Origin: Minisyncoccota bacterium
GTDB taxonomy: Bacteria > Patescibacteriota > Minisyncoccia > Minisyncoccales > JAGOPM01
Assembly (NCBI GenBank): GCA_041651395.1
Contig: JBAZJI010000001.1
Location: 891,920 to 955,919, forward strand
Direction: 5' to 3'
Length of the DNA stretch: 64,000 nucleotides
The position numbers and the translations under genes are program-made. Shown here one piece after another: positions 10,295 through 59,600 of the stretch. Under the pieces are notes generated by a model, which was not told where the DNA came from, searched no databases, and saw nothing but the letters and a program-made list of their open reading frames with translations. The stretch's first letter is position 1. Each line of letters opens with the position of its first letter.

Positions 10295-10298
10295 TATT

Positions 10299-10739: not shown

Positions 10740-10742
10740 TTT

Positions 10743-11782: not shown

Positions 11783-11786
11783 TATT

Positions 11787-16401: not shown

Positions 16402-16406
16402 TCTTT

Positions 16407-17897: not shown

Positions 17898-17928
17898 AAA
17901 AATCCCCGCCTTTAAGCGGGGATTTTTT
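17898..17928. terminator. Bidirectional intrinsic terminator between the T4SS-like operon and jag
   Basis: aaaaatccccgc-ctttaa-gcggggatttttt: GC-rich stem flanked by an A run and a T run. Confidence 0.85.
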
Positions 17929-19772: not shown

Positions 19773-21125
19773 ATGACTAATGAAGAACTTTGGCAAGCTG
19801 TCCTTGCTCAAATACAATTAGCCATCACTCAGGCGCAATTTGCGACTTGGTTTACTAAGACATCGATATTTACCAGAACAGAAAAAGGGGTAATAGTTTC
19901 TATTCCAAACAGCTTCTCAAAGGAATGGATCCAGAATAAATACCATAAACAAATACTTAAGATCTTAAACTCCCTTGATAACTCTATTAAAGATATTGAA
20001 TATCAGGTTAATCCTATCCAGCAACCTAAACCAAAAGAGGAGGATAATTATTTAATACCTACTTCTACCGCACCGCTCTTTGACCAGATTAATGCCGATA
20101 AAGAGACAAACTTAAATCCTAAATATAAATTTGAAAATTTCGTTGTCGGTGCTTTTAATGAGCTTACCTTTGCTGCCGCTCAAGCAATTTGTAAAAATCC
20201 GGGCACAGTTTACAACCCCTTCTTTATTTATGGGGGAACAGGTCTTGGTAAAACCCACCTCCTCCAGGCGATTGGCAATCAGGTTGCTAAAGATTTTCCG
20301 TTAAAAAAGATTAAATATATTCCTTCTGAAACTTTGACTAGTGATATTATTAATTCCATCCATAATCAGACGATAGAAGAGTTAAAGGCTAATTATAAGA
20401 AGGTTGATATTTTAATTGTAGATGATATCCAATTTTTATCTGGAAAGGAAAAAACTCAAGAGGAGTTTTTTAATGTTTTTAATGCTTTATACGAAAAAAA
20501 TAAACAGATAATTCTTTCCTCGGATCGGCCACCTAAAGCTATTGCCGCCCTTGAAGATAGGCTCCGCTCCCGCTTTGAAGGGGGGATGATTGCTGATATT
20601 GCTATCCCAGACTTCGAGACCCGAATCGCTATTTTAATGGAGAAAGCTAATGAAAAGGGGGTGGATTTACCTAAAGATGTTTATGAATATATTGCCACAA
20701 ACATTCAGCGTAATGTGCGCGAATTAGAGGGAGCGCTTAATAAAATAATCGCTAATTATAAACTGACAGGGCAGCAGATTGATCTGGAGGGGGCAAAGAA
20801 AATACTAAAAACCATTATCTCTCCAACCTTAAAACAAAAAAATCCTGAGAGGATAGTGCAAGTTGTGGCCGAATTTTATAACTTAAAAGAAAAAGATATT
20901 TATAGCGAATCAAGGAAAAAGGAAATTGTCCGGCCGCGCCAAATCGCAATGTATTTATTGAGGTTGGAATTAAAAAAATCCTTCCCGGAGATAAGTCGTT
21001 TTTTAGGTGGTAAAGACCATACAACTGCTATTTATGCTTGTAAAAAGGTTGAATCTGCTATTAAAGACGTTGATGGTTTTTCTGATGAAATAGACACGAT
21101 AAAACAGATGATCTATTCTTGTTGA
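19773..21125 (+). CDS. dnaA: Chromosomal replication initiator protein DnaA
   Basis: Walker A FIYGGTGLGKTHLLQAIG, LIVDDIQFLSGKEKTQEEFF, the RSRFEGG sensor, and C-terminal DNA-binding motifs RPRQIAMYL...GGKDHTTAIYACKK. Confidence 0.97.
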   Translation: MTNEELWQAVLAQIQLAITQAQFATWFTKTSIFTRTEKGVIVSIPNSFSKEWIQNKYHKQILKILNSLDNSIKDIEYQVNPIQQPKPKEEDNYLIPTSTAPLFDQINADKETNLNPKYKFENFVVGAFNELTFAAAQAICKNPGTVYNPFFIYGGTGLGKTHLLQAIGNQVAKDFPLKKIKYIPSETLTSDIINSIHNQTIEELKANYKKVDILIVDDIQFLSGKEKTQEEFFNVFNALYEKNKQIILSSDRPPKAIAALEDRLRSRFEGGMIADIAIPDFETRIAILMEKANEKGVDLPKDVYEYIATNIQRNVRELEGALNKIIANYKLTGQQIDLEGAKKILKTIISPTLKQKNPERIVQVVAEFYNLKEKDIYSESRKKEIVRPRQIAMYLLRLELKKSFPEISRFLGGKDHTTAIYACKKVESAIKDVDGFSDEIDTIKQMIYSC

Positions 21126-39002: not shown

Positions 39003-40265
39003 ATGACTATCAGCAAATATTTTCCCAAATCCTTGGTGAATTTTTATCATTTTTGTTTGGCTTGGATTGGTTCGCGCCTTTATGGTAGTCCTTCGCAGGA
39101 GCTCAAAGTAATCGGCGTAACTGGGACCAATGGCAAAACAACAGTGGTGGAAATGCTTTCTTTTGCGCTTAAAGAGGCCGGCTTTCGCGTGGCTAGCGCC
39201 TCTTCTATCCAATTCCGCTTAGGGGATAATTTTCGTTCTAATAAAACCCGCATGACCATGCCGGGTAGGTTTTTTGTGCAAAAATTTTTAAGCGAAGCCC
39301 AGGAACAAAATTGCCAGTATGCGGTTTTAGAAATTACATCGCAGGGGATAGAGCAAAGCCGCCACTCTTTTATTGATTTTGATGCGGTTATTTTTACGAA
39401 TTTGAGCCCTGAACATATTGAAGCGCACGGTGGATTTGAAAATTATAAGAACGCCAAAGGGCGCCTCTTCAAAGAAACGCCTCGGGCTATCCATATAGTC
39501 AACACTGACGACAAAGAGGCAAAATATTTTTTGGATTTTGCGGCCAGGCAAAAGATTGGCTACTGCGTGGATGATAAAAACGAAAAGCCCGCTATTGATA
39601 AAATAATCAAAGCTGATGATTTTAAGGTTGGGACTATGGGAGTAGAGTTCAAAGTAAAAGGGCAGCAGTTTGACGTTAACTTAGTCGGGGAATATAACGG
39701 CTATAATGCCTTGGCTGTTGTCGCTTATTTGTTAGAGCAGGGTGTTGATTTGCCGCGTTTGAGTAATATTTTATTTAAGTTCAAAAAGATTGATGGCCGG
39801 GGAGAAGAGGTGATGGATAGTCCTTTTCGGGTGATTGTTGATTATGCGTTTACGCCTATTGCTTTGGAACTTTTATATAAAACCTTAAAGCCGCAGGCCA
39901 AAAAATTGATTGCGGTTTTGGGCTCGGCGGGGGGCGGGCGCGATAAATGGAAGCGCCCGGCTCTTGGGGAAATTGCCGATAGATACGCTGAAGAAATTAT
40001 TATCACCAATGAAGATCCTTTTGATGAGGATCCTATGCAGATAATCGAGGATGTGGCCAAAGGGGTTAAAGCGCGCGAAGCTAAAAAAATATACGATCGC
40101 CGCGAAGCCATCAGGATGGCTCTATCCCTAGCGCAACCTGGCGACATAGTGGTTATTACGGGCAAAGGTTGCGAGCCAAGCATTGAAGAAAAGGGCAAAA
40201 AAATCCCTTGGGACGACAGGGAAGTAGTAAAGCAGGAATACAAAAAGTTAAGGAATGATTTATAA
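39003..40265 (+). CDS. murE: Mur ligase family protein, MurE-like (short N-terminus)
   Basis: VIGVTGTNGKTTV, LEITSQGIEQSRH, IFTNLSPEHIEAHGGFENYKNAKGRLF, and C-terminal GSAGGGRDKWKRP. The exact substrate cannot be assigned. Confidence 0.7.
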   Translation: MTISKYFPKSLVNFYHFCLAWIGSRLYGSPSQELKVIGVTGTNGKTTVVEMLSFALKEAGFRVASASSIQFRLGDNFRSNKTRMTMPGRFFVQKFLSEAQEQNCQYAVLEITSQGIEQSRHSFIDFDAVIFTNLSPEHIEAHGGFENYKNAKGRLFKETPRAIHIVNTDDKEAKYFLDFAARQKIGYCVDDKNEKPAIDKIIKADDFKVGTMGVEFKVKGQQFDVNLVGEYNGYNALAVVAYLLEQGVDLPRLSNILFKFKKIDGRGEEVMDSPFRVIVDYAFTPIALELLYKTLKPQAKKLIAVLGSAGGGRDKWKRPALGEIADRYAEEIIITNEDPFDEDPMQIIEDVAKGVKAREAKKIYDRREAIRMALSLAQPGDIVVITGKGCEPSIEEKGKKIPWDDREVVKQEYKKLRNDL

Positions 40266-41831
40266 TTCCTTAATCATATAAGTCCCTGAAAGCTTGTAGT
40301 CGAATTTGCGATAATAGTCGCGGACTCCCACTCCGGAGATAACCGCGATTTTTTTATAGCCGTTCTTTTTGGCGATTTGCTCGGCAATCTCTAAAAGTTT
40401 TCTACCCAGGCCCTGGTGCTGGCTGGCCGACTTTTCTTTTTTAGAAACCTCTAATTGCTGGCCATAGGTATGGACTTCGCGGATAAGGGCGGCATCTTTT
40501 AATTCTGGCAAAATAGCTTCGCCAAATGGCAGGCGCAGCCTTAAAAGGCTTATCAGCTTAGTGCGTTCTTTATTCTCAAAAGATAAAAAGAATTCTTGCC
40601 CTTCGCCGGCTTGGTATTTTTCGATAAAAAGTTCCAAGGAGTTTTCTTTAAGCTTTTCTCCTTTGATTTCCCGGCAGCGGATACAATGGCAGGCTTTATT
40701 TGCTTTCTTTAAGTCTTCTAAAATATGCTGGCGCAAGTTAGTGACTTTAGCTGCCTCATTAAGAGCATACTGTGAGGGAATGTCGCGGATAACGCGCTCC
40801 ACTCTAACATAGTAGGGAAGGCTGCATTTTATTTGGGCCAAGAGAGCGCTTAGTTCTTCAAGGGTATAAGACTTAAATTTTTTGTTTTTCCAGAGTTTAT
40901 AAAGTGGCGCTTCTTTCAAGACGGCCAAGGGGTAGATTTTCAAAAAGTCTGGTTGGAAGCGGCTATCGTTAAAAAGAATTTCAAACATTTCTAAATCTTT
41001 GCAGAAATTCGAACCGGGGAGGTTGGGCATTATTTGATAGGCGATTTTGAAACCGGCATTGCGTAAAAGTTTTGTAGCTAAAATTGTTTTGTCGCTTAAA
41101 TGCCCGCGTTTGTTTAGTTCTAAAACATTATCGAAAATGGACTGGACGCCTAATTCTACCTTAGTGACGCCCAATTCACGCAAGAATTTGATTTCTTTTA
41201 TATCAATGCAATCTGGCCTAGTTTCAACGGCAATACCGATAATCCTGTGCTTGGCTTTTTCGTTCTTTTTTTGCTCTTGGGCTAAGGTAGCAACTTTTGT
41301 TTTAGACAAATTACAAGCAGCAAAACAATCGCGAATAAATTTGGTTCTATATTGTTTAGGGTATGCGCTCCAAGTGGCGCCGATTATGCGCAGATCGATT
41401 TTATCCGTGGCGTGCCCGCTTTGGCTTAAAACTTCCAGGCGCTGGGCAACTTGCTTGGTTGCGTCAAATTTCAAATCAAAAGCGCGCTGGGCCGCCGGCT
41501 CGCCTTTAAGATAGCTTTTGGGCATGCCGCTTTGCTGTGGGCAATAAAGGCAGCGCCCCGGGCACTCATAAGGCTTGGTTAAAACCGAAATATTAACAAT
41601 GCCGGAAAGCGAGCGCACTGGGCGTTTGATAAAAAGTTTTCTAATGGCTGGGTTATCCTTAATTTTGCCAGTTTTAAGCAGTTTATGGTATGCTGAAAGC
41701 AGGGAAACGTTAGAGATGTTTTGAAGTTTGAATTTTTTGCTGAATTCGCGCTTAAAGCGTGCCAAATCCTCCGCAGTATTGGGCTGGGATTTGATGAACT
41801 CTATGACTGCTTGCTCAATTAAGTTTTTCAT
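40260..41831 (-). CDS. elp3: Elp3-type radical-SAM + GNAT enzyme (tRNA U34 carboxymethylation family)
   Basis: Radical-SAM cluster motif CPGRCLYCP, TIM-barrel core (RIIGIAVETRPD, ELGVQS), and C-terminal GNAT QHQGLGRKLLEIAEQIAKKNGYKKIAVISGVGVRDYYRKFDY. 523 aa, the canonical Elp3 architecture. Confidence 0.85.
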   Translation of the reverse strand: MKNLIEQAVIEFIKSQPNTAEDLARFKREFSKKFKLQNISNVSLLSAYHKLLKTGKIKDNPAIRKLFIKRPVRSLSGIVNISVLTKPYECPGRCLYCPQQSGMPKSYLKGEPAAQRAFDLKFDATKQVAQRLEVLSQSGHATDKIDLRIIGATWSAYPKQYRTKFIRDCFAACNLSKTKVATLAQEQKKNEKAKHRIIGIAVETRPDCIDIKEIKFLRELGVTKVELGVQSIFDNVLELNKRGHLSDKTILATKLLRNAGFKIAYQIMPNLPGSNFCKDLEMFEILFNDSRFQPDFLKIYPLAVLKEAPLYKLWKNKKFKSYTLEELSALLAQIKCSLPYYVRVERVIRDIPSQYALNEAAKVTNLRQHILEDLKKANKACHCIRCREIKGEKLKENSLELFIEKYQAGEGQEFFLSFENKERTKLISLLRLRLPFGEAILPELKDAALIREVHTYGQQLEVSKKEKSASQHQGLGRKLLEIAEQIAKKNGYKKIAVISGVGVRDYYRKFDYKLSGTYMIKEL

Positions 41832-41833
41832 TT

Positions 41834-42544
41834 ATGGATAAGAAATTGCAGGAGAAAATCCTCAAAGATACCCAGAAAAGTTATGACCTTATTGCTCCTG
41901 ATTATGCAAGAACAAGGCTTAACTTGTCAACCTATCTTAAAGGCGCGATTGCGCAGTTAGGGCCTAGCGGGAAAATATTGGATTCGGGGTGCGGTTCGGG
42001 TGCGGTTTTTGAGGCATTAATTTCGTATGGTATTGATTATTACGGTTTGGATATTTCTAAAAAATTAATTGAATTGGCAACGGAAAAATATCCGCAAGGC
42101 CGTTTTTATGAGGGGGATGTTTTGCGTTTACCCTTTGAGGATAATTATTTTGATAATTTGCTTTCCATTTCAGTAGCTCATCATATTCCCGGCAATGATT
42201 TACGCTCGCGCTTTATTAAAGAGCAAATGAGGGTCTTAAAACCCGGGGGTAAAATGCTTTTTCGGGTATGGGATTTGAAAATAATCCCGGAGGCCGCTTC
42301 GATTTTAGCCAAAAATACTTTTTGGAAATTTCTGGGGCAAAATAAAATGGATTTCGGGGATATTATGTTTCCTTGGAAAAATTCTGAACAAAAAGTCGTG
42401 GCTCATCGTTATTTTCATTGCTTTACAGAAAATGAGCTGGCCAATCTTTTGAAAAAAAGCGGCTTAGAGATTGTAAAAGTTTGGAAGGAGGGCAAGCCGC
42501 CAAAGGCCATGAGTATTTTTGCCATTGCTAAAAAAATTAAATAA
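41834..42544 (+). CDS. Class I SAM-dependent methyltransferase, Trm9/ALKBH8-MT-like
   Basis: SAM motif ILDSGCGSGAV. LPFEDNYFDNLLSISVAHHIP..R, LKPGGKMLFRVW, and C-terminal AHRYFHCFTENELANLL resemble the Trm9 pattern (..RYYHLFxxGEL..). Its start codon is 2 bp from the divergent elp3 start. Confidence 0.6.
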   Translation: MDKKLQEKILKDTQKSYDLIAPDYARTRLNLSTYLKGAIAQLGPSGKILDSGCGSGAVFEALISYGIDYYGLDISKKLIELATEKYPQGRFYEGDVLRLPFEDNYFDNLLSISVAHHIPGNDLRSRFIKEQMRVLKPGGKMLFRVWDLKIIPEAASILAKNTFWKFLGQNKMDFGDIMFPWKNSEQKVVAHRYFHCFTENELANLLKKSGLEIVKVWKEGKPPKAMSIFAIAKKIK

Positions 42545-42548
42545 AAAT

Positions 42549-42875
42549 ATGGCTATAAAAAAGAAAGTTAAAAAGCCGGCAAAGAAAGCCAAAAAAATAA
42601 TTAAAAAACTTAAGCCCGCTCCTTTGAAAGGGGAGAAGCTGGTGGGTATTGTCACGCATTATTTTGATAAGCTAAAAGTGGCGGTTGTAAAAGCCAAGAA
42701 AGATTTGAAGTTAAAAGATAAACTGCATTTTGTGGGCGGAGAGGATACGGATTTTAAGCAGATTATCACCTCTATGCAATTTAATCACGAAAAGATTAAA
42801 AAGGCACTCAAGGGCAAAGAATTCGGTATGAAAGTTTCTAAGGTGGTGCGGGAAGGGTATAAGATATTCAAGTAA
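42549..42875 (+). CDS. Translation-elongation-factor-like small beta-barrel protein with a Lys-rich N-terminal tail
   Basis: ATG at 42549 gives MAIKKKVKKPAKKAKKIIKK. The core VGIVTHYFDKLKVAVVKA..DKLHFVGGEDTDFKQIITSMQFNHEKIKKALKGKEFGMKV..REGYKIFK matches the EF-Tu-domain-2-like family of small proteins. Confidence 0.65.
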   Translation: MAIKKKVKKPAKKAKKIIKKLKPAPLKGEKLVGIVTHYFDKLKVAVVKAKKDLKLKDKLHFVGGEDTDFKQIITSMQFNHEKIKKALKGKEFGMKVSKVVREGYKIFK

Positions 42876-42902: not shown

Positions 42903-43901
42903 ATGGACAGGAAAGCTGAGAAAAAAAATAGGGCACCAAGGAATAGAACTATTAATTTGAGCCAAGGAGATATTTTGAAACTGCGTCAACGCCTATTAAC
43001 CATAAATAGGCCAGTTAGTGTGCGCGAAATTGAAAATAAAACCATTCATCAGGATGCTTTTGAGGTGCTGCAACACCTTCCTGAGAATTTTGTGGATTTA
43101 GTTTTTGCCGATCCACCATATAATCTGCAAAAGAATTTTAACGCTACGACATTTAAGAAACTTAGTCCAAAACAATATGAGGAATGGCTCGATTCTTGGA
43201 TGTCGAAATTAGTACGCATTCTCAAGCCCGAGGCCTCTGTTTATATTTGCGGTGATTGGCGAACCTCCGGAGCAATTTTTAACGTTGCGAAAAAATATTT
43301 TCAAATTCAAAACCGCATAACCTTCGAAAGAGAAAAGGGCAGGGGGGCTAACAATAATTGGAAAAATTGTTCTGAGGATATTTGGTTTTGCACCCTTTCC
43401 AATAAATATTATTTTAATGTTGATGAGGTAAAAATGAAGCGAAAGGTTTTAGCGCCTTACAAGGATAATAATGGCGGGGCCAAAGATTGGCAGGCTACTG
43501 CTGATGGGAATTATCGAATAACTTTTCCTTCCAACATTTGGACCGATATAACCATCCCGTTTTGGTCTATGCCGGAAAATACAGACCATCCAACCCAAAA
43601 GCCGGAAAAGTTAGTTGCTAAGGTTATTTTGGCCAGCTCTAAACCAAACGATATAGTTTTTGACCCTTTTTTAGGTTCGGGCACAACTTCTGTAGTAGCT
43701 CGCAAACTTGGCCGCCGGTTTGTCGGTATTGAAATTGATGAAAAATATTGTTGCCTTGCAGAAAAAAGGTTAGATATGGCTAAAGACAATAAAAATATCC
43801 AGGGATATGAGGATAATATTTTTTGGGAACGAAATACCCTCAATGAACGGTTAAGCAGTAAGAAGGATAAACTAAGCAAAGCCAAGGGTGCATTATTATG
43901 A
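42903..43901 (+). CDS. Beta-class DNA methyltransferase (DPPY; N6-adenine, or less likely N4-cytosine)
   Basis: Motif IV FADPPYNL precedes motif I DIVFDPFLGSGTTSVVA. The HPTQKPEKL motif is present. The permuted order is the beta class. Confidence 0.88.
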   Translation: MDRKAEKKNRAPRNRTINLSQGDILKLRQRLLTINRPVSVREIENKTIHQDAFEVLQHLPENFVDLVFADPPYNLQKNFNATTFKKLSPKQYEEWLDSWMSKLVRILKPEASVYICGDWRTSGAIFNVAKKYFQIQNRITFEREKGRGANNNWKNCSEDIWFCTLSNKYYFNVDEVKMKRKVLAPYKDNNGGAKDWQATADGNYRITFPSNIWTDITIPFWSMPENTDHPTQKPEKLVAKVILASSKPNDIVFDPFLGSGTTSVVARKLGRRFVGIEIDEKYCCLAEKRLDMAKDNKNIQGYEDNIFWERNTLNERLSSKKDKLSKAKGALL

Positions 43902-44566
43902 AAGAACAAAGTCCGATATTTTATACTAATACTCATAAAGAGTTAGCTCAAAAGGTAAAAGATTTTTTGAATAAGCAAAATAATTTTTTATCACAGAGGA
44001 CGCAAAATAGTCCTCGAGCCGTCGGAGATGCTATTGAGAGTATTGTTTCTGATAATTTTAAGGATATTATCGGTGATATTGCCGGTCAGTATTTTGCAAA
44101 TTTTGCCCGTCGTTCTTTGGCAGATTTGGCTTTTATTGATAACCAAGGATTCTATTATGCTGTTGATGTAAAAACGCATCGTTTGGATACGGTATTTAAC
44201 ATGCCAAATTTAACTTCGGTGCAGAGGTTATCGAAATTCTACGAGAACGACAAAAATTATTTTTGCATTCTCAAAATAGACTACAGGGTTGCTGTTTCAA
44301 AGGTTATTATTGAAAATGTAACTTTTGTCCCGATTGAGTTTCTTGATTGGGATTGTTTAACGGTAGGCGCTCTAGGATGGGGGCAAATTCAAATTGCTAA
44401 TGCTAATACTGTGACTATAATCTCCTCGAATAGCCGCAAAAAATGGATGCTCAATTTATGCAACAGGCTGCTTGAGTTTTACCCTGCAGAGATGAATAAA
44501 ATTAAAAAAAGGATTAGCTATTTTGAAAAAGCTAAAGAGTTTTGGGAGAAAAAAGAAAATAAGTAA
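43898..44566 (+). CDS. Putative Type II restriction endonuclease cognate to the upstream methyltransferase
   Basis: ATGA overlap with the MTase stop. 222 aa. Candidate PD-(D/E)xK core (..ADLAFID..YAVDVKTH..). No family recognised. Confidence 0.5.
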   Translation: MKEQSPIFYTNTHKELAQKVKDFLNKQNNFLSQRTQNSPRAVGDAIESIVSDNFKDIIGDIAGQYFANFARRSLADLAFIDNQGFYYAVDVKTHRLDTVFNMPNLTSVQRLSKFYENDKNYFCILKIDYRVAVSKVIIENVTFVPIEFLDWDCLTVGALGWGQIQIANANTVTIISSNSRKKWMLNLCNRLLEFYPAEMNKIKKRISYFEKAKEFWEKKENK

Positions 44567-49235: not shown

Positions 49236-50915
49236 ATGCAAAGAAAAAAGGCAGTTCTTTGCTTTTTTGCTGTATTGTTTGCATTCTTGGCAACGATTGT
49301 TTTTAGTGTGTCTGCGGCTACTAAAAAACCACTCGCAACCAAATCGGCAACAAGTCAGCAAAATGAAGGAACGGTTACAAATCAAAGCGGGGGAGGTATG
49401 GCTTCTCCAATAAATTGTTTTGCATACTTTAAGCCTGATACTGTACTTATCAGTCTTAGTGCTTCCTCTCCTGATTATAAAGTCGGCGATGAGATTAAAT
49501 TAACCGCCAAAGTCAGCAATGCAAACAATTTTCCTATCGCTCAAGGTAATTTGTTCATACAGATTTATCGCCAATCGGGTGAAGGTGGTGCCCCGGATTA
49601 TCTAGTTGATGAATTTTTTGTCCAAGATGTAGCGCTTAATGCCCGCGAAATCCGTAATATTGATTTTGCTTGGCGAGCCCCCTCGGGAATTTCTGGCGGA
49701 AAATATACCGTTGGAGCATTTTTTACTCTGAATAAAAGTATTTATATTTCCGGAGCTCCATTTAATGAAAAAGCTTATGATAAGGCCTTTACGACTTTTA
49801 ATATCCGCTCCATTGATGACGCCAGCGAGGTAGCGGTAGACAAGAAAAATATTATTTTTAACGGCCAGACATATAATTATTTTTCCTTAATTCCGGTAGT
49901 TAAGGCTGGCCAGCCGATCGAAGTTGTTTCTACAGCCAAAAATCTTTCCAATAAATCCCAAGAAATAAAGATATCAAAAAAAATATATTTTTGGGATAAT
50001 TTAAGCGAGGACGCGATAGTCCAAAAAGAAACAGAAAAGGCTACGCTAAATGCCGGCGGTTCGCTGAATTTGTATTATTCGACCAAAGGTCTTAATAGTG
50101 GGGCTTATTTGTATGAATTAGTGGTCGAAAGCCAGAGTGGAGTTAAATCTATTGCCAAAGTCCGTTTTCAAGTAAAAGGAGACAAGCCTGTGGCCCATAT
50201 TAAGTTTTTAGCCTTAAGTAGTTGGCCGATTAAAAAGGATCAAAACATGTTTATCTTTAATTGTTTTGAGTCCATTGTCCCGGGGGATAGGGTAGATGGA
50301 AAGGTTTATTTAACTTTGCGCGATGCCTCTGACAATAGCGTTTTGCAGCGGGTAGAATATAGTGGTCCAATCGGTTATAGCCCTATTGCTATTAAAAACG
50401 ATTTTAAGGCGGACAAGGAAAGGTATGCGGTAATTTTGGAATCACAAATTTACGATCGGGGTGGAAATTTACTCGACCAAGAAACGATAAAATATGATTG
50501 TTCATCTTTTGATAATGAGGTCCGGGATGTGAAAATAGAAGTCAACGAAAAGGAAAACACAATCAAGGCTTTCGGAGTTAATTCTTGCGGCTCGCAGGTA
50601 AAGGGGAGAATTAGTTTAGAAGTGATAAAAATCAGTGGAGCCAACAAGAAGATATTTTTGGAGAAGGATTTTCAAGGCGACGAATTGTCAAAAAATATTT
50701 CTTTGAAAGGTGGGCAAACCTACAAAATTACGGCAAAAGTTAATGCGGTTTTGCGCTCCATTGAATATAAATCGACCAAGCCAAATTATGATTGGATTTG
50801 GTGGGTCGTCGGCTTTGGTCTTATTGCTTTAATTATATTTTTCTTTATTAAGCGCCAAATGGACAAAGCTTCCGCGGCTCCTGTCCAGTTTCATCAATCA
50901 ACATTCCAACAATGA
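49236..50915 (+). CDS. Surface protein A1: signal peptide, multi-domain beta-rich ectodomain (CARDB/Ig-like by eye), C-terminal TM anchor
   Basis: N-terminal VLCFFAVLFAFLATIVFSVSA. C-terminal WIWWVVGFGLIALIIFFFIKRQ. Clear paralog of 60910-62481, for example LFIQIYRQ..YLVDEFFVQD..FAWRAPSGISGGKY versus IVVQIYRL..YLLDEFVLEK..FRWQIPNGLNSGAY. Confidence 0.75.
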   Translation: MQRKKAVLCFFAVLFAFLATIVFSVSAATKKPLATKSATSQQNEGTVTNQSGGGMASPINCFAYFKPDTVLISLSASSPDYKVGDEIKLTAKVSNANNFPIAQGNLFIQIYRQSGEGGAPDYLVDEFFVQDVALNAREIRNIDFAWRAPSGISGGKYTVGAFFTLNKSIYISGAPFNEKAYDKAFTTFNIRSIDDASEVAVDKKNIIFNGQTYNYFSLIPVVKAGQPIEVVSTAKNLSNKSQEIKISKKIYFWDNLSEDAIVQKETEKATLNAGGSLNLYYSTKGLNSGAYLYELVVESQSGVKSIAKVRFQVKGDKPVAHIKFLALSSWPIKKDQNMFIFNCFESIVPGDRVDGKVYLTLRDASDNSVLQRVEYSGPIGYSPIAIKNDFKADKERYAVILESQIYDRGGNLLDQETIKYDCSSFDNEVRDVKIEVNEKENTIKAFGVNSCGSQVKGRISLEVIKISGANKKIFLEKDFQGDELSKNISLKGGQTYKITAKVNAVLRSIEYKSTKPNYDWIWWVVGFGLIALIIFFFIKRQMDKASAAPVQFHQSTFQQ

Positions 50916-53900
50916 AAAGGCATATTTTCTTATTTTTAACTCTTGCGCTTTTGGCTGTATTTTTGGATATGGCTGCTCCGCAGATTATCAAAATTAAAGC
51001 CGCGCAAACTTTTTATGCTTGTCGCAAAGCCCCTTCAACCGGCTGCGGCTCTTTGACGGCTCAAGATATTGATGATTGTCAAAGGCAAGTTCAAGGGACT
51101 TGTTATACTGACCCAAATTGCAATGGCGCCTGTAACGCAACTTTGGATCGTAATGTTTATGCTTGCGTCGGGGGAAATAATTCCTGTGCGCTCTTAGGTC
51201 AAACTACCGATTCTTTGGCCACCTGCCAATCCAAAGTTGGCAAGCCGTGTTTTGAGGATTCTAATTGTTCCGGATCGTGCAGCTCTGGAAGTGGTGCGGG
51301 TTGTAACAAGAATTTTTATTGCGATTCGGGCGAAACAAATGCTAATTGTCCCAGTGATTGCCCATGCAACAATAATGCTGTTTGCGAAGCATATTTAGGG
51401 GAAACGGATAAAAATTGTTCCAGCGATTGCGGTTGCAATAATAATGGGAATTGCGAATCGCAGAGGGGGGAAGATAAAACTAATTGTGCCGCCGATTGTG
51501 ACCGGGGTATAGGCTGTAATAATAATGGCCGCTGCGAAACCGGGGAAAATTCTACAAATTGTCCGAACGACTGTAAGTCCGGCGATTATAGTAAGAATGT
51601 TTACGCATGCGAAACCGGAAAGTGCGTGTATAAGGCTAATTGTATGAGCTACACAGGAATCAGCTGTTATCCCGACCCCGATTGTTACGGGGCGTGCAGT
51701 GGCTCTGGGGCGAGGGTTTTATACGGGTGCCGCGATAATAGCTGTATTGATTTGGGTGCGGCAACGACCGATACATTGCAACAATGTCAGCAGCGGTGGG
51801 GCTTTGCGTGTTTTGAAAACATGGATTCCTGTCGGGCGTCTTGTGGTCCGGCTAAAAAAACTTTTTATTATTGCCCGGCAAGCGGGGGAGCATCTTGCCA
51901 GCCAACTAATGATTTTTCCGATGCGACAGATTGCAGCCAGACGCTTTGGTTAAAAAATATCGCCAAAAATGGGATTTGGTGCCAAGAATCCCAATTTAAG
52001 GGTGCCTGTGATTATGATTGTTCGAAAAATGCTTGTAATAATGACAGAACATGTCAGCCGCAAAATGGCGAATCTAGGCAAAATTGCGTTGACTGTATTT
52101 GCAATAAAGATTTTAATTGTGAATTTTCTGCGGGTGAGAATTATTCTAATTGCCCCAGTGATTGTCCGTGTAATTTTAATGGCACTTGTGAGACATATTT
52201 AGGGGAAAATTCCACAAATTGCATTCAAGATTGTTCATGTAATAAGAATAATATTTGCGAATCCCAGAGAGGGGAAAGCTATTCGAATTGTTCAAGCGAT
52301 TGCAAATATACCTCAGGGAAAATTATTGTGAATACTTTGCCCTTTGAGCTTAATAATCCCCCCGGAGGCTTGATGATGAATGGCGAGCTTGCAGATCTGG
52401 GAGGAATTGCCGTGTTGGACGTGGGTTTTATAATTTATCCCGAAGGAAGCACGCCGATAATGAGCGATCCGAACAATACTTATAGTATTGTTCGTGCAAA
52501 TGTTCTCAATGGGGCGGCGCGCTTTGCCCTTCCTGCGCAAAATGCATTTTTTTACGGTTTTCCAATATTACCTAAGTTTCAAGGGAAAAATCGCCTTTGC
52601 TATAAGGCGTATGCAATGGATGCCAATGGCGGGACTATTGATAAAAATCAAACAGTGGCATTTGGAGGCGAGGTTTGTTTTACCGTACCCCAAAAACAAG
52701 AGATTGTCTGTGGCAACGGCAGTTGTGAGAGCGGAGAAAGCTATCAAAATTGTCCTGCGGATTGCCCCAAATCATCAGTTTGCGGGGATGGTAAATGTGA
52801 AAGCGATGAAATCCTTAATTGTCCTAAAGATTGTAATTCGGCAGTCTGTGCGATACATACCGCGGGAGTTGGAGGCTCAACGAATGCTTATGGGTTTTCT
52901 TTAAGAGGGAGGGTTGATGATCCGAACAATACGATATATAAAGATGCAATTTTTGGATTTGAAATTTATAACTTGCGCAACGGGAAGAATATTTTTTCTG
53001 GCGATTACCAAAATGTGGCGGTAACTTGTGATGCTACAGGGGGGAGGGATATCCCGAAGTATTGCGATCTTTCTCAAAAAGAGTTTGTCGTATTTTTAAC
53101 TAATGGTGTGCTGTTAAATAGCTCAATGCTTTCCAATGCGGCGCTGGGCGATACCGTTTGTGCGAGGGCTTTTATGTCTTCTTCGGTCAAAGATTATAGG
53201 AAAATTGAAAATAGGATATACGCGAATTCTTCCGAGGATATATGTTGGGTTTTGAGCGATAAGCAAGTCAGTTGGGATAAATATGGTTTTAGCACTTGCG
53301 GTTCAAAGTGTTCCAATGTCGAGCGCCCTGGTTGTTCGGGAACATATACTCCCCCAGTTCAAGAAAGACAGATGAATTGCGTTAATTCCGGTTTAGGCAC
53401 GGCGGCAGGAGTAGTGGAGATTTGCTCTAGTGTTATTCCGGCTGCCGGCTGTAATAGGGGAGATGTATTGATTGCGCTTGAGCCTTCCGATGGAGCAACT
53501 GTAAATTATGCCAAAGTTTATTTAACACTTTATAGCGGCCGAGGGATTAAGTTTATTTCTGATTATTCTGATTCTGATTACAAGGCGCAAGTATCCGGGG
53601 AAAATGTTTTTTGGGATGTTGGTAAATTTTCTCAAAAAGTTCAGCTGAGGTTTCAAGTCAGTTTTCCCGATGGCCAAATCAACCAAATGGTTAATTATAC
53701 TTTCGGGAAAAATAAAGTTTATCACGGGTGTAATGCCGCGGGCTGTAATGGTGAAGCTACCATTTACGATATGATTTTGAGCCCGAAGTGCGGAGTTGAT
53801 ATTTGCAGGGTAGACGGGATTTGTGATGTGGCGGTCGGAGAAACTTTGGAAAACTGTTCTAGTGACTGCAAAAATCAAGTTTGCAATTCTGATGGTAAAT

Positions 53901-56650
53901 GCGATCTTGGCAAGGGAGAAACTTTTCTTAATTGTCCGAAAGATTGTGGGCAATTTAAGAATTTTTCCATAATCACTTTGGATGCCAATGATGTCAGTGA
54001 TCACTCTGCCACTATCCGGGGAACAATCCCGGGTATGGGTGATGTTAAGACCGCCCAGTATTATCTCTCTTATTATATTTGCGACGAGAAGGCTAGAGAT
54101 AATTTGCATTTAGGACAAAGCTATATTGCTGCTTTCGGGCAGACGAAGGCCGGAGGGCTTTTTGAAGCCAAACTCGATTATCTTTTCCCCGGGATGAAGT
54201 ATTGTTTCGAGGCCTCGGCTTATGATGTGGACAATAAAAATAATATGCTCACCGGCGGGCAAAAAGAGTTTACGACTTTAGCTCCTTCTAGCGGTATTAA
54301 TTGTCCGAATTTATCTTCTCCGATTAATAGCACTAAAATTCAAACCCTGACTCCTGAACTTAAATGGACAAGCGTCTCTGGTGCCACTTATTATCGTTAT
54401 GCGATTTTTAAGGATTTTTGGAACATGTCTGCACCCTCTGAGGCCAATGGTGTTATTATTCCTAATGCCAAAGTGGCGCCCAATTCTCTCATTTGGGCTC
54501 GGCAATATATTTGGGCGGTTAATGCTTGTAAAGACAGTACAATGAAAGAATGCTCTGGTTGGTGCATGCCTTCGTCTTTTATTACCGGAGATTTATTGGC
54601 CGCGCCTAAAATTATTAGGCCCAGTGGCGACATTACCTCTACTCAACCTTTGATTGAATGGGAATATGTTTCTGGCGGGAATTATTATGAGTGGGTCATA
54701 GAGAGGGAAAGTCCCGCTTTAGGTATTCCCAAGGTAGCCGAAAGCGGACTGACCAAAGAAAAAACCGCTTCAGCCACCAAGAATTTGGCCTTGGGAAATT
54801 ATTTGATAAAAGTTCGCGCCTGCTCTGACCAGCAAATGGTGATTTGTGGCGAGTATGCAGAGGTCAAATTTTCAGTTAAAACCGATGAGCAACTTAAGGC
54901 CAAATGCGGCACATTGCGGATTTCTAGTGACAATAAAAAGGAAGGGTATTTTATGATGTGTGCCAACGGTAAAACTTGGCCTTGTGATGATGGTGCCCTT
55001 TCTCCCGATTATCCTATTAATAATAAGAGCGATTATTTATACGACAAGGCGGTTGATTTAGGCTTAACACCCGGAGAATTCCAAGCAGACTATTATGTTA
55101 ATACTGCCCAATATGATATCTATCTGCAAGACAAAGTAAATGGTACTAAATATCCCACTAATTCCGCTCTACCTTCCAATCATAAAGAATATAAGTTGAT
55201 AGTCGATCCGTTAAAAGTCCCCAATAATACTTTAGTCGAAAAGAGTCGGGCTGGGGGAGGAACATATAATATCCCAGCTGATATGGCTCAAGACGTGCTT
55301 TCCCTTTACCAATCGGCTACTCCGGCAATTGAGGCTAAAGTTGCTGATCAGCTGCCGATTTATGATGGTGACAGAGAGCTTGAATGGAATTTGGATGAAA
55401 TGTTTTTCGGATTCATTATGGATAATCCGTTATTTAAGCCAGGATTAACCGTCGATGGAGGAAATTACTTTGAAATCAAAAAAGATTCCGGTAGTGGGGA
55501 AATTTCGGTTACTATCAAAGATAGTGCCTTGGGCGGGTCAGAATTGGATAAAATGCAGTTGTCGGTAGCTATTCCTCAGCTTAATACTTTTCAAACTATA
55601 AATAATCTGTGGTATAACCAAGGCTGTCTCGACGCTCAAGAGGTGCCGCAAGTTTTAGAATTTACCATCGGTCCGCCGGTGGAAGATTGCAAAGCGCTTA
55701 ATTGTGCCAGCTTACAGTGCGCCGTGGAGCCAACCTGTTCCTATGAGGGCGGCGAGAGTGTTGCAGCCAGTAAAGATCAGAAGACTGAATATAAATGGAA
55801 TCTTTATCCAGATACTCCAGCTAAGGGCCGATCTTTAATTTGCCAATATTCTGGAATAAGCCTGACCATGCCGCCTTGCGATTCAAATGCCCCACCAAAA
55901 CAAGTTTTTTCTTTGACGGAAATAGATTATTGCTCTTATCCTGTGATTCTTAATTTCAGCTGGAAGCCAAGCCAAGAAACATCTCATACGCAAATAGCCT
56001 ATACCATTAATATCGAGAGGCAAACCAAGGATGGTTGGGAACAGATCATGAGTTATGAAAATAATGACCCTGTTACGGGCGGATCAAATGTAAAAAGCAT
56101 CAAAGTATTTGGAAAGGGTTTGGCTGTTGGGAGTAAAGGGGAGATTGATTTCACAAACAGAGATGATTCTGATAGGGACAATTTAAGAGCTTCGGTAATT
56201 GTTAAAGCGGAAAATGGGTTAACTTCGGAATCTTCAGACCCAGTTGAATTTATTTTACCGGCCAAGCCGCGGCCCATTCCAGTTATCCCTGTTAGCGGTC
56301 CTAAAAAATATGTGGCTAATCCGGAAACGCGCCAAATTACATTTTATGGTGAGCTAAATGCCGACCAGCAGAGTATTGGTATGAGCGCCCCCGATGCTAA
56401 TTCTTGGTATTGGTATAAGGGTTTGGGGGAAGCTGTTATAGCCGAAAGAGGGGAGCCAATTTACGGTGATGAGGATGCTATTATTGGATATAAGCCGGAA
56501 AAAACTTACCCCTTCAGACTGCGCGAACCGATAGAAGTCCGTTTGGAATTTACACACTCCGATACTGTCGATAACAAAAATTGTTCTGCGCCCATCAAGC
56601 TTATTGAGGGGACGGATGTTATCTTTAGGAGCAAAGGCCCGCAAATATAA
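50912..56650 (+). CDS. Giant secreted Cys-rich protein B1 (1912 aa) with several repeat families
   Basis: Signal peptide. Five copies of a ~45-aa six-Cys module. Twelve copies of a ~22-aa C-x4-C-x(4-7)-[GE]-x(3-4)-C-x2-DC repeat in four blocks (~51302-51574, 52034-52303, ~52707-52845, ~53797-53950), each block followed by an Ig/FN3-like domain. Two W..V.GA.YY.Y modules. The C-terminal ~900 aa is collinear with B2. Confidence 0.8.
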   Translation: MKRHIFLFLTLALLAVFLDMAAPQIIKIKAAQTFYACRKAPSTGCGSLTAQDIDDCQRQVQGTCYTDPNCNGACNATLDRNVYACVGGNNSCALLGQTTDSLATCQSKVGKPCFEDSNCSGSCSSGSGAGCNKNFYCDSGETNANCPSDCPCNNNAVCEAYLGETDKNCSSDCGCNNNGNCESQRGEDKTNCAADCDRGIGCNNNGRCETGENSTNCPNDCKSGDYSKNVYACETGKCVYKANCMSYTGISCYPDPDCYGACSGSGARVLYGCRDNSCIDLGAATTDTLQQCQQRWGFACFENMDSCRASCGPAKKTFYYCPASGGASCQPTNDFSDATDCSQTLWLKNIAKNGIWCQESQFKGACDYDCSKNACNNDRTCQPQNGESRQNCVDCICNKDFNCEFSAGENYSNCPSDCPCNFNGTCETYLGENSTNCIQDCSCNKNNICESQRGESYSNCSSDCKYTSGKIIVNTLPFELNNPPGGLMMNGELADLGGIAVLDVGFIIYPEGSTPIMSDPNNTYSIVRANVLNGAARFALPAQNAFFYGFPILPKFQGKNRLCYKAYAMDANGGTIDKNQTVAFGGEVCFTVPQKQEIVCGNGSCESGESYQNCPADCPKSSVCGDGKCESDEILNCPKDCNSAVCAIHTAGVGGSTNAYGFSLRGRVDDPNNTIYKDAIFGFEIYNLRNGKNIFSGDYQNVAVTCDATGGRDIPKYCDLSQKEFVVFLTNGVLLNSSMLSNAALGDTVCARAFMSSSVKDYRKIENRIYANSSEDICWVLSDKQVSWDKYGFSTCGSKCSNVERPGCSGTYTPPVQERQMNCVNSGLGTAAGVVEICSSVIPAAGCNRGDVLIALEPSDGATVNYAKVYLTLYSGRGIKFISDYSDSDYKAQVSGENVFWDVGKFSQKVQLRFQVSFPDGQINQMVNYTFGKNKVYHGCNAAGCNGEATIYDMILSPKCGVDICRVDGICDVAVGETLENCSSDCKNQVCNSDGKCDLGKGETFLNCPKDCGQFKNFSIITLDANDVSDHSATIRGTIPGMGDVKTAQYYLSYYICDEKARDNLHLGQSYIAAFGQTKAGGLFEAKLDYLFPGMKYCFEASAYDVDNKNNMLTGGQKEFTTLAPSSGINCPNLSSPINSTKIQTLTPELKWTSVSGATYYRYAIFKDFWNMSAPSEANGVIIPNAKVAPNSLIWARQYIWAVNACKDSTMKECSGWCMPSSFITGDLLAAPKIIRPSGDITSTQPLIEWEYVSGGNYYEWVIERESPALGIPKVAESGLTKEKTASATKNLALGNYLIKVRACSDQQMVICGEYAEVKFSVKTDEQLKAKCGTLRISSDNKKEGYFMMCANGKTWPCDDGALSPDYPINNKSDYLYDKAVDLGLTPGEFQADYYVNTAQYDIYLQDKVNGTKYPTNSALPSNHKEYKLIVDPLKVPNNTLVEKSRAGGGTYNIPADMAQDVLSLYQSATPAIEAKVADQLPIYDGDRELEWNLDEMFFGFIMDNPLFKPGLTVDGGNYFEIKKDSGSGEISVTIKDSALGGSELDKMQLSVAIPQLNTFQTINNLWYNQGCLDAQEVPQVLEFTIGPPVEDCKALNCASLQCAVEPTCSYEGGESVAASKDQKTEYKWNLYPDTPAKGRSLICQYSGISLTMPPCDSNAPPKQVFSLTEIDYCSYPVILNFSWKPSQETSHTQIAYTINIERQTKDGWEQIMSYENNDPVTGGSNVKSIKVFGKGLAVGSKGEIDFTNRDDSDRDNLRASVIVKAENGLTSESSDPVEFILPAKPRPIPVIPVSGPKKYVANPETRQITFYGELNADQQSIGMSAPDANSWYWYKGLGEAVIAERGEPIYGDEDAIIGYKPEKTYPFRLREPIEVRLEFTHSDTVDNKNCSAPIKLIEGTDVIFRSKGPQI

Positions 56651-56657
56651 TAAAGTT

Positions 56658-59600
56658 ATGAGCCAGAAGTCTAAATTTGTAATATTTTCTATTATTAGTC
56701 TATTTATCATAGGAGTAATCAGTTTGGCTTTAGCTCAAACCGGTGAAGGCTCTTTGCAGGTAACGGCTAAAATGGCCTGCAATTCTCAGACGTTTGCCAA
56801 GGTGCAAATTCAGATAAAATGTCTTTCCGGCTCAAAAATTGATTGCAAGAAAGAGAATATTTTGAAGTTTAGCAATGTTTCGGCCAATGTTACTTTGCAG
56901 GATGGCACGCCCTATCCTAGCGTCAGTTCGCAGGCCAATTCTGGCGGACAGACAATGTATGAGGACATTTGGAAAAAAATAATTTTTGCCAATGATAACG
57001 ATTCCAGATATTTTTCTTTTCTGACTCCTTTATGTGGCAAGCGCTCGGCTGAACTTACGTATTATGATTTATTGCAGCAAAAAAATATTACCGTTCCCAT
57101 AAAAATAAATAGTCAGGCCTCCCTTGTCTGTTGGCAATGTCCGAGCGGTGAAGAATACAGTACGGTGATCGGCAACGGTTTATCTGCCGGTGGGGCAAAT
57201 ACTGCAACAACGAGTACTCCGGAAAATCCTAGCTTAAATGAAGGCGTAAAAATGCCCTACCTTTATTGTCCTTCCGGTTTAGAGCAGTATTGCCGCCCCA
57301 GCATTGAATTATTTGCAAGCGAAGAGGAGTGTGAGGCTAATATGGCGCAATTTATTCCGCCCTCTATCTCTGGCTCGAAATGTTTTAGTTTAGAAAATGC
57401 TCAGGCTTGCAACACAGCGTGTCAAAATTTTTCTCAGCCTTTTATTCCAACAAGCACACCCCCAAACAACGCTTGTGCCAAGGAAGGGGAGAAGGTAGGC
57501 CAATGCCAAAACCGGCAGTGCTGTGAGGGTTTAGTGCCGCGCCCGCCGCTGGGCCCGGTTTGCCAGGCTTGTGATGTTTGCGAGGCCTTCACTTGCGTGA
57601 AGCCCGATACCCCTCCTACCATCGGTAATGTTAAATGGTGGTATTGCCAAAGTGATGGCAACGGGCAATGTCAACTGAGCGTGGAAAATTTTTCTGAACC
57701 ACAAGCCTGCCTGGATAAATATGCCAGCCAAATTTGTTTTCCTAATGTGAGCGGCTTAGAATCGCAAATGCAAGCCACTTGTAATAACTCGTGCAATACT
57801 TTAGTTAATGGATCTTTATCAGTTCACCCTTTTATTAGCAGCGACGCTTCCTGCAATAAGATTATTAAATTTCAAATAACCTGTTTGCCCGGGAAAAAAA
57901 TAATCTGTTCGGGTATTGATTTGCAATACGAATATTCTCCGGCTGCAGAGTCTTATGTTAGTTCCAAACCTTCCGCCGAGCGATTTGATTTTGGCTATTC
58001 GACTGGTGGCATTATCCATAGCTGGCTATGGCGTGGCATAGAAATAAAGGCCACCAGTTCAGATTATATCATCACTATGAGGCCGGGATCATTTACCAGC
58101 ACTTATGCCGCGACAATTTATCATATTAATCCGACAACCAAAGAGCGTTTGACTACTAGAATTAATATGCCTTGGGTGGAAAAATGTGCTACTGGAGATG
58201 GTGGGATAACAGTGGTTAATCCTGATGATGGGAAAAATAGCCCTTCTTGCGGTAATGCCAGTTGTGAGCCGGCTTTAGGTGAAAATAATTCTTCCTGCCC
58301 TCAAGATTGCCAACAGTGCAATTTGGATAAAATTTGCCAAGCAGCTAGAGGAGAAACAATTGATAATTGTGCTGATTGCGCCAACGGTCAAACATTGGAA
58401 TTTTCCGTAGCCAGCAAGCCCGCCTCAGACATTTCCGAGCAATCAATGGTGCTTAACGGCGAGCTTATGGGGCTAGGCGAAAATAAAAATGTTCTTTACG
58501 GGTTTCAATATTATCCTTGTGCCTTTCCCGAGATGCTCTCGCAGACAAAGTGGCAAACCGCTACTTCGCCCGTGGCCTTTAGCTTTGATTTATTAGAGCT
58601 TCCACCCGATACGGAAATTTGTTTTAAGGCACTAGCTCAAGCCTCAAGCACGGTATTACAAGGCGATTTATTAAAGGCAAAAACTCTATCCAGTAAATCA
58701 GGATTAGTGTGCCCAATGCCGCTTAGCCCCAAGATCGATGAGAATATTACTTCGCTTTCTACTCAACTTAGTTGGTCAATGGTTAATGGGGGGAAATATT
58801 ATCAGTATGCCCTTTATGAAACGACTTTAGGCGGGGCTATGATAAAAGAAGGGGATACTAATAGTAATGCCGTCAATGTCGGGCCTTTGGTTTGGGGCAA
58901 ACATTATTATTGGCGAGTTAATGCCTGCGCTGATTCGACTTTGAAAAATTGTTCTAATTGGTGTCCGGCTTGGCATTTCATAACCGGGGTAATTTTGAAT
59001 CCGCCCGTTATTACTAGCCCATCTTCAACTTCCATTTCTGAGAAAAAACCGTTGTTCTCTTGGGATTATGTATCTGGGGCGCAATATTACGAATATGTTT
59101 TATTGAGCGGTTCGACAGAAATTGTTCGGGACACCATTTCTTCCAATCGGGCCTACCCAGCTAACGAATTGCCTTTGGGCGATTATATTTTGAATGTCCG
59201 GGCTTGCCGCGACCAACAAAAACAAAATTGCAGCGAATATGCAGAGCGCGCCTTTTCTTTGAAAGATGAAGAGACCATTCTGGCTAATTGCAGCGCATTA
59301 AGGATTGGCAGCAAAAAATTCGCCTCCGGGGATCCAAATTATATTTATTTGGAAAAATGTTCAGCAGCCAATTGCCCTTCGCCTTATAAGGAACCTAATA
59401 TTGATCTGAAGGCGAGTTATGTTGTAAATCCAGAATATAAAATTTATTTATTAGACGAAAACCGGGGAATAAAATATGAATCCGGGTCTAGCGAGCCGCT
59501 GCCGCAAGGTCAGACGTTGCGCTTAGTTATCGAACCATTAGTATTGCCAAGCACTAATTTTGGCAATGGCGGCTACAATAATACTGGCGGGCAAAAAATA

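Follow-up and report, generated by a model that had tools for sequence, protein, structure and literature searches.

Does a bacterium of the candidate phyla radiation (CPR) carry the archaeal/eukaryotic type of pathway for modifying the wobble uridine (U34) of tRNA? The question is raised by two neighbouring genes in a stretch of 64,000 nt (the window, by which we mean that whole stretch) from Minisyncoccota bacterium (GCA_041651395.1, contig JBAZJI010000001.1, positions 891,920-955,919 of the forward strand), an uncultivated and ultra-small member of the CPR/Patescibacteria. An earlier note, made from the sequence alone, had described the two as an Elp3 paired with a Trm9-type carboxyl methyltransferase and had proposed a two-step route from 5-carboxymethyluridine (cm5U) to its methyl ester (mcm5U). 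The listing of open reading frames (ORFs) returned both genes where the note had placed them:

40260-41831, minus strand: Elp3, ORF of 523 aa
41834-42544, plus strand: Trm9-type class I S-adenosylmethionine (SAM)-dependent methyltransferase, ORF of 236 aa; predicted tRNA cm5U34 carboxyl O-methyltransferase (forms mcm5U)

The motifs quoted for the two proteins (CPGRCLYCP, QHQGLGRKLL, ILDSGCGSG, ISVAHHIP, LKPGGKMLFRVW and AHRYFHCFTENEL) were all recovered, and orthologues from many loci align starting at residues 1-4 of both proteins, so that the start codons are credible and not artefacts of ORF calling. The two-step proposal was supported by every computational test that we ran, and judging from the sequences we consider it very likely that the locus constitutes a two-gene wobble-uridine modification module of archaeal/eukaryotic type, in which Elp3 would make cm5U and the Trm9-type enzyme mcm5U.

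By its sequence the 523-aa protein is unambiguously a full-length Elp3. It matched the NCBIfam model TIGR01211 (ELP3) with 524.7 bits (cutoff 350), residues 13-523 covering model positions 7-522 of 522, and it exceeded the Pfam cutoffs for Radical_SAM (51.9 bits) and Radical_SAM_C (62.3 bits); the Pfam matches to the GNAT domain were weak and below their cutoffs, but this domain is nonetheless covered by TIGR01211. Within the PDB the best match was the archaeal MinElp3 (6iaz; 7e-109, 368 bits), the other matches including DmcElp3 of Dehalococcoides mccartyi (5l7j; 1e-102, 348 bits) and the eukaryotic Elp3s (4e-89 to 7e-81). The following functional elements could be located:

41541-41564, minus strand: radical-SAM [4Fe-4S] cysteine triad C90-x3-C94-x2-C97 (CPGRCLYC); CPGxCxYCP in 13/13 aligned Elp3s
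40674-40691, minus strand: zinc-site cysteines C381-x-C383-x2-C386 (CHCIRC) in the inter-domain linker
40392-40421, minus strand: acetyl-CoA-binding GNAT motif A, QHQGLGRKLL, residues 471-480; QHxGxG in 13/13
41628-41831, minus strand: N-terminal extension, residues 1-68, archaeal-type and net basic (14 K+R vs 6 D+E)

The QHQGLG stretch (residues 471-476) aligns to the KAT domain of MinElp3 and takes the motif form Q/R-x-x-G-x-G/A. Both the zinc cysteine triad and a basic, tRNA-binding N-terminal extension have been described for prokaryotic Elp3 (PMC6367351). The extension was seen in all 13 CPR/Chloroflexota Elp3s compared; the alignment with MinElp3 begins at residue 50 of the window protein and that with DmcElp3 at residue 69. 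In MinElp3 tRNA binding is driven by this extension, and the shortness of the DmcElp3 version has been offered as a reason for the very weak activity of that enzyme (PMC6367351, PMC7663514). Two Elp3s from loci labelled Gracilibacteria (L003:4051-5685 and L013:9899-11533) were found to be without the CxCxxC zinc triad, reading FREIRARE in place of CxCIRCRE.

The family to which the methyltransferase belongs was less directly evident, as Pfam returned only generic methyltransferase families (Methyltransf_11, 83.2 bits) and the database labels of family members vary (TRM9 or ALKBH8 for some in the JGI pipeline, UbiE for others, a generic class I methyltransferase at NCBI). In a single-sequence search of the PDB, Trm9 of Yarrowia (YlTrm9, 5cm2_Z) was aligned through the C-terminal half, including the stretches DIMFPW and HRYFHCF. 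The profile of a family alignment, built from Elp3-adjacent orthologues of other genomes and database homologues, retrieved the same structure first and end to end (6.8e-29), followed by the uncharacterised PH0226 (8.4e-25), which is without the signature residues. When this family was aligned to 120 fungal Trm9s (hhalign), the probability was 100% (E 4.7e-44, 213 columns) at an identity of about 22%, and the match covered the whole domain, from the N-terminal helix Y..IA.HFS.TR..W to the C-terminal RYYH and DN strands. A hidden Markov model (HMM) of the 120 fungal Trm9s gave the CPR family 48-116 bits (median 94; the window protein 67.1) and generic Methyltransf_11 proteins at most 31 bits; reciprocally, the HMM of the CPR family gave the fungal Trm9s 99-141 bits and the comparison set a median of 57 bits. 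An AlphaFold2 model (mean predicted local distance difference test 94.1) showed the strand order of a class I methyltransferase and is compatible with Trm9, without discriminating it from other such enzymes. Taken over profile, hhalign, reciprocal HMM and the residues discussed below, the methyltransferase groups with Trm9 and not with unrelated methyltransferases, as the note had suggested from its motifs. Four proteins tried as outgroups (P0014, P0015, P0019 and P0021) were rejected because they are Trm9-like themselves; the two that were checked are not linked to Elp3. One of the four, P0014 (L025:5001-5621), scored 96 bits on the fungal Trm9 HMM and lies on an 83 kb contig that also encodes a DNA-ligase/PolX fusion, Thy1 and RNase III, and on which many ORFs have no Pfam match. 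PDB entry 6F5Z, considered as an archaeal Trm9, was also set aside, the entry being Hvo_0019-Trm112.

The mutagenesis data available for yeast Trm9 (ScTrm9) allow the relationship to be followed at the level of single residues. The yeast numbering was set via the Yarrowia sequence rebuilt from the alignment (100% identical to P0157), an offset of 35 matching all published residue numbers, and conservation was counted over 137 family members. Alanine mutants at R29, D72, H116, W145, W168, R241, Y243 and N271 resist zymocin and are either inactive or impaired by a factor of 10 or more, H116A being inactive, and mutants at K31, R122, E148, Q149 and D270 have a wild-type phenotype (PMC4678810). 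The essential positions were kept in nearly every member: R29 (136/137), D72 (137/137), H116 (136/137), W145 (137/137), W168 (129/137), R241 (136/137) and N271 (130/137), with Y243 present as Y or F in 105/137; the equivalent of H115 was kept in 129/137. All five dispensable positions were variable. The corresponding elements of the window protein are:

41975-42001, plus strand: SAM-binding motif I, ILDSGCGSG, residues 48-56
42050-42052, plus strand: acidic SAM-ribose ligand D73 (= ScTrm9 D72); 137/137
42179-42184, plus strand: H116-H117 = ScTrm9 H115/H116 (catalytic / uracil O4 recognition); 129/137 and 136/137
42407-42415, plus strand: R192-Y193-F194 = ScTrm9 R241-Y242-Y243 (carboxylate binding); R in 136/137, Y in 133/137
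42512-42514, plus strand: S227 at the position of ScTrm9 N271 (uracil O2/N3 recognition); lineage-specific deviation

The motifs picked out in the earlier note thus turned out to be the experimentally defined Trm9 residues (HH = H115/H116, VW = W145, PW = W168, RYF = R241/Y243). Conservation follows function residue by residue, which is hard to explain unless the family has the same substrate pocket as Trm9, a pocket in which modelling places the uracil ring and the cm5 carboxylate.

We then turned to the genetic context. When the GTDB representative genomes, one for each species, were scanned with the window Elp3, 14 loci were recovered; nearly all belong to CPR/Patescibacteria lineages (Nealson-, Sacchari-, Gracili-, Peregrini-, Moranii-, Falkow- and Magasanikbacteria); those labelled otherwise were one metagenome-assembled genome assigned to the Gammaproteobacteria and one Woesearchaeote. 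In 10 of the 14, with Elp3s that are 42-55% identical to the window protein, a methyltransferase homologue is the immediate upstream neighbour of Elp3 and is transcribed divergently; of the other four loci, one has a methyltransferase 5.5 kb away, two have none in their flanks and one is on a contig that is too short. The same head-to-head arrangement was found on a Chloroflexota contig (L019). A metagenome scan with the subfamily of the window methyltransferase as query yielded 80 loci (37-48% identity), four of which had too short an upstream sequence; among the remaining 76, Elp3 was adjacent and divergent in 74, at a distance of 1.6 kb in one and lacking in one, so that the pair was present in 75/76. 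Clustered at 90% identity, these metagenome loci form 61 groups; at 70% they form 27. As a control, the 14 other neighbours of the pair in the window were followed, and none was kept within 10 kb of Elp3 outside the closest relative; likewise, when all ORFs around the pair were clustered, only Elp3 and the methyltransferase recurred. The pair spans no fewer than 27 clusters (70% identity) and at least eight named lineages without other synteny, which is far beyond chance. Conservation of the adjacency in relatives, which the note had put forward as a check, is thereby established; its remark that Elp3 occurs only sporadically in bacteria was an understatement, Elp3 being common across CPR lineages. 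In the locus labelled Gammaproteobacteria (L009, CAYPAP010000001.1, 431 kb), Elp3 is CPR-like (43% identity) and the Trm9-like gene follows 5.5 kb downstream in the same orientation; the taxonomic label of this locus may be wrong, or it may show a different arrangement in a non-CPR host.

The two genes of the window are not merely adjacent: as the note had stated, their start codons are 2 bp apart and divergent, the raw sequence reading CAT TT ATG. This junction and one promoter-like site next to it are located as follows:

41829-41836: head-to-head junction CAT-TT-ATG (CAT 41829-41831, ATG 41834-41836); start codons 2 bp apart, no intergenic region
41901-41930, minus strand: promoter-like (sigma-70-like) site TTGACA-18-CATAAT (11/12), within the methyltransferase coding sequence and pointing at Elp3, whose ATG follows about 70 bp downstream

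Among the 75 paired metagenome loci the start codons overlap as the palindrome CATG (spacing -2) in 47 and abut as CATATG (0) in eight, and spacings of +1 and +2 occur in three and four, respectively; the gap is at most 7 bp in 66/75. Other divergent gene pairs of the window are 16-242 bp apart. The zero-spacer layout is a conserved feature of the module. As there is no spacer, there is no room for a promoter or a Shine-Dalgarno sequence outside the coding sequence of the partner. The expression signals may thus lie within the partner gene, giving antisense-overlapping 5' untranslated regions, or the mRNAs may be leaderless, and the two readings are equally good; the note's claim that each promoter lies inside the other gene follows from the absent spacer, leaderless transcription from the ATGs fits just as well, and the co-regulation that it added is something we infer. 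A promoter scan gave six matches against a shuffled expectation of 6.0 ± 2.5, and the site at 41901-41930, the only strong match, is suggestive only. Position frequencies over 29 non-redundant CATG junctions revealed no promoter signal separable from coding constraint; the conservation at these junctions follows the N-terminal peptide of the methyltransferase, M-D/E-x-K/R-E-Y-A-E-Y-L-L. The layout probably keeps both enzymes co-expressed.

Eukaryotic and archaeal Trm9 require the activator Trm112 (PMC4678810, PMC6144793). No Trm112-like small ORF was found in the window, and across the compared loci no third conserved partner (Trm112, a thiolase or a tRNA gene) was found around the pair. Six hydrophobic Trm9 residues that are buried by Trm112 were compared, and the surface they form appears polarised in the CPR family: V59 is replaced by K or R in 94/137 and F78 by D, E, N or K in 111/137. 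The position of E100 is mostly K, F116 and D117 being retained; the change from E100 to K is of the same kind as N89K, which together with L91R breaks the yeast Trm9-Trm112 complex. Taken together, the missing partner and these aligned positions make it probable, at moderate confidence, that the methyltransferase stands alone and is independent of Trm112.

Several results weigh against the module as we read it, and they have to be considered together with the explanations that compete with it. Part of them concern the family assignment. Trm9 has no curated, thresholded model in Pfam or NCBIfam, and membership therefore depends on the profiles built in this analysis; no NCBIfam model came near its cutoff for the methyltransferase (best the DVU_1556 family, 63.6 bits vs 155). 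In the PDB profile search Trm9 leads PH0226 by only about 13 bits, and in a Foldseek search among some 2,000 class I methyltransferases an uncharacterised archaeal methyltransferase ranked first and Trm9 second. Others concern the linkage: two of the Elp3 loci (L004 and L010) have no methyltransferase nearby, and a second CPR subfamily was not beside Elp3 in the two loci examined (L020:5001-5711 and L022:5001-5717), so that the linkage is a property of the window's subfamily and not of all Trm9-like genes. The members of this second subfamily carry a C-terminal N-Y-Y motif and the JGI label TRM9/ALKBH8, and are encoded just downstream of a RecQ-type helicase (recQ). The Trm112 independence, in turn, depends on aligned loop positions and on absence from partial genomes. 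One could then suppose that the methyltransferase is a generic class I enzyme of the UbiE or small-molecule type that came to stand beside Elp3 by chance in a compact genome, as the generic Pfam and NCBIfam matches without any equivalog above cutoff, the UbiE labels of some pipelines and the short divergent spacers elsewhere in the window (16 and 28 bp) would allow. The persistence of the pair over so many clusters and named lineages in the absence of other synteny, the conserved Trm9-specific residues and the reciprocal HMM scores, which separate the family from generic methyltransferases, effectively refute this explanation, and we give it almost no weight.

More has to be said for two explanations that accept the ancestry and question the product. 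The enzyme may descend from Trm9 and yet, in the lineage of the window, have changed its substrate (to a different U34 intermediate or another carboxylated nucleoside) or lost efficiency, so that the end product is not mcm5U. The window copy is identical to yeast Trm9 at six of the eight critical residues only. Its F194 is a conservative replacement of Y243 (across the family this position is Y in 70/137 and F in 35/137), but S227 deviates at N271, the reader of uracil O2/N3 in the docking model, where S occurs in just four members, the window protein and its close relatives. As N271A reduces the activity of yeast Trm9 about 25-fold (PMC4678810), the window copy could be weakened or altered; moreover, the proteins of this lineage have the lowest scores of the CPR set on the Trm9 HMM (61-67 bits), and the window protein has D at the equivalent of H24. 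Set against this, H24A has no phenotype in yeast (PMC4678810), the other six critical residues are intact, a serine can still donate or accept a hydrogen bond, and the lineage (L015-L018) has kept its tight pairing with Elp3, as would be expected of an enzyme that still acts on what Elp3 makes. The window enzyme, given F194 and S227, may thus be somewhat altered, though paired tightly with Elp3, and we think a different end product unlikely. Slightly less probable still is a joint action of the two enzymes on a target other than U34 (rRNA or another RNA uridine) or towards another side chain, further enzymes diverting the product to ncm5U or an unknown derivative. It would accord with the circumstance that xcm5U34 has never been detected in any bacterium (PMC7663514), with the lack of a tRNA gene linked to the module, and with the statement that in yeast, too, cm5U, ncm5U and mcm5U are connected by a step not yet identified (PMC3110198). 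Yet the Elp3s of bacteria, archaea and eukaryotes alike respond specifically to tRNA, other nucleic acids and peptides eliciting no such response (PMC6367351), and the family retains the residues that are modelled as reading the U34 base and the carboxylate on it.

In the two-step pathway that we favour, Elp3 would bind tRNA via its basic N-terminus and central cleft, as archaeal Elp3 does, would cleave SAM to a 5'-deoxyadenosyl radical and would use acetyl-CoA to install cm5 at C5 of U34, yielding cm5U; this step is suggested by family membership and by the cited biochemistry of the Min, Dmc and yeast enzymes. The Trm9-type enzyme would methyl-esterify the carboxylate with SAM to give mcm5U34 (or mcm5s2U if a thiolase also acts), as the conserved Trm9 substrate-binding residues and the linkage of the genes indicate, and would probably do so without a Trm112 activator, unlike eukaryotic and archaeal Trm9. 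Since the pair is conserved in many CPR lineages, this 'non-bacterial' pathway is probably widespread across a large part of the bacterial tree.

One of the closest known systems is the eukaryotic Elongator (with Elp3 as catalytic subunit) together with Trm9-Trm112 (mcm5U34/mcm5s2U34); both of its catalytic families recur here, and the order in which they are predicted to act is unchanged. The window Elp3 differs in standing alone, without the Elp1/2/4/5/6 scaffold, and in possessing the zinc cysteine triad that eukaryotes lack; the CPR methyltransferases keep the mutagenesis-defined residues of eukaryotic Trm9, but have a polarised Trm112-binding patch, are physically paired with Elp3 and were found without a Trm112. 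Archaeal Elp3 (Haloferax volcanii HVO_2888; Sulfolobus solfataricus) resembles the window protein in being stand-alone and in having a long basic N-terminus and the zinc triad. Its methyltransferase counterpart (HVO_1032-Trm112) works with Trm112 (PMC6144793), which was not found in the window. H. volcanii is documented to contain (m)cm5U (PMC6367351, PMC7663514), and a clustering of the Elp3 and Trm9 genes in S. solfataricus was noted in 2008 (PMC2584109); compared with the archaeal pair, the window pair is bacterial, strictly divergent with touching or overlapping starts, and conserved radiation-wide and not in 'a limited subset' of genomes. The bacterial DmcElp3 also stands alone and shares its fold and motifs with the window Elp3, but its N-terminus is short, it binds tRNA with low affinity and its activity is very weak (PMC7663514); the window Elp3 is about 68 residues longer at its N-terminus, like archaeal Elp3. 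The literature searched does not mention a Trm9 partner for DmcElp3; a Chloroflexota relative (L019) carries the same divergent methyltransferase partner. MnmE-MnmG (with MnmC) is a functional analogue that decorates C5 of the same wobble uridines by unrelated enzymes and chemistry (GTPase/FAD, glycine-derived cmnm5). CmoM of E. coli is a class I methyltransferase that methyl-esterifies a U34 side-chain carboxylate as well (cmo5U to mcmo5U). No CmoM model is among the NCBIfam matches listed for the methyltransferase (best 25 of 33), and the signature residues of the window family match Trm9 and not a generic methyltransferase.

With respect to what was already known, the chemistry, both enzyme families, the S. 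solfataricus cluster and a crystallised bacterial Elp3 are all on record. In Elongator reviews as recent as 2020, Dehalococcoides is the only bacterium credited with an Elp3, and a 2026 paper goes no further than attributing one to 'numerous bacteria'; the literature searched gave no account of Elp3 in CPR, of a bacterial Trm9 or of a conserved Elp3-Trm9 pair. What is new is therefore the bacterial, CPR-wide occurrence of a known pathway and not a new kind of system, its variant features being the probable Trm112 independence, the archaeal-type full-length Elp3 and the CATG overlap of the start codons.

The window as a whole is AT-rich and compact and includes the replication-origin neighbourhood of a bacterium. 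The genes that bear on the genomic setting are:

17.9-19.6 kb, minus strand: L34, RnpA, YidC and Jag (Jag = 17927-18382)
19.8-22.5 kb, plus strand: DnaA and DnaN (DnaA = 19773-21125)
7796-17894: type IV secretion system (T4SS)-like block, with a TraG-type P-loop ATPase (11787-13586) and a T4SS pilin-like protein (16377-17894)
42519-42875, plus strand: small ORF, 118 aa from TTG (possible start ATG 42549), with a lysine-rich tail and an EF-Tu-domain-2-like beta-barrel

The E. coli gene mnmE comes after yidC, and mnmG lies beside oriC; in the window, as the earlier note had observed, the slot past jag is filled by the T4SS-like genes. With the E. coli MnmE and MnmG proteins as queries, tblastn recovered neither of them, whether from the window or from 105 related loci (824 kb); the sole match was an RsmG in the Chloroflexota locus. 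Over these 824 kb of loci, as distinct from whole genomes, the result is consistent with a replacement of MnmE/MnmG by Elp3/Trm9. The small ORF directly downstream of the methyltransferase, which itself showed only a weak Peptidase_U32_C match, has an orthologue (L001:8714-8977, minus strand) that exceeds the Pfam cutoff for GTP_EFTU_D2 (33.9 bits vs 30.3). It is confined to L001 and L015-L018 and lies outside the conserved pair; an accessory protein with a role in tRNA binding is conceivable from these features.

Further along (42903-44566), a DNA methyltransferase gene (Pfam N6_N4_Mtase, 161.5 bits) and the next ORF, which overlaps it, has 222 aa and is without a family match, together look like a small restriction-modification cassette. 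In L015, where the flanking proteins are 77-96% identical to those of the window, this cassette is absent and the small ORF downstream of the Trm9-type methyltransferase is followed directly by the inositol-phosphate synthase gene, so that the cassette is a recent insertion beside the Elp3/methyltransferase module. On the other side of the module, the convergent 3' ends of murE (39003-40265, plus strand) and Elp3 overlap by 6 bp (40260-40265), a further sign of tight genome packing. The T4SS-like block also contains large ORFs of 832 and 644 aa, and upstream of it lies an ORF of 738 aa (1363-3579), none of which has a Pfam match. Elsewhere, two very large consecutive ORFs (50912-56650, 1,912 aa; 56604-60905, 1,433 aa) are flanked by ORFs at 49236-50915 and 60910-62481 that are likewise without Pfam matches.

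A far-reaching version of the pathway, in which much of the CPR and some Chloroflexota make (m)cm5U with a self-sufficient, Trm112-independent module that replaces MnmE-MnmG and whose CATG overlap enforces co-expression, is possible, and we put it forward tentatively and with considerable doubt. What can be said is that a complete-looking two-step module, consisting of an Elp3 with an archaeal-type N-terminus and a Trm9-type methyl-esterase with an apparently intact active site, occurs across many CPR lineages and in Chloroflexota, and that its conserved CATG overlap is a clean natural case in which divergent transcription and translation initiation could be studied without an intergenic region. 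If the module is active, mcm5U would no longer be a marker of archaea and eukaryotes, and a Trm112-free Trm9 would offer a simpler model enzyme. The compactness of the two-gene cassette, which would allow its transfer to mutants of E. coli or yeast for studies of Elp3 chemistry, makes the question directly testable for the tRNA-modification field, and an active module would provide a concrete hypothesis for how bacteria with reduced genomes decode split codon boxes.

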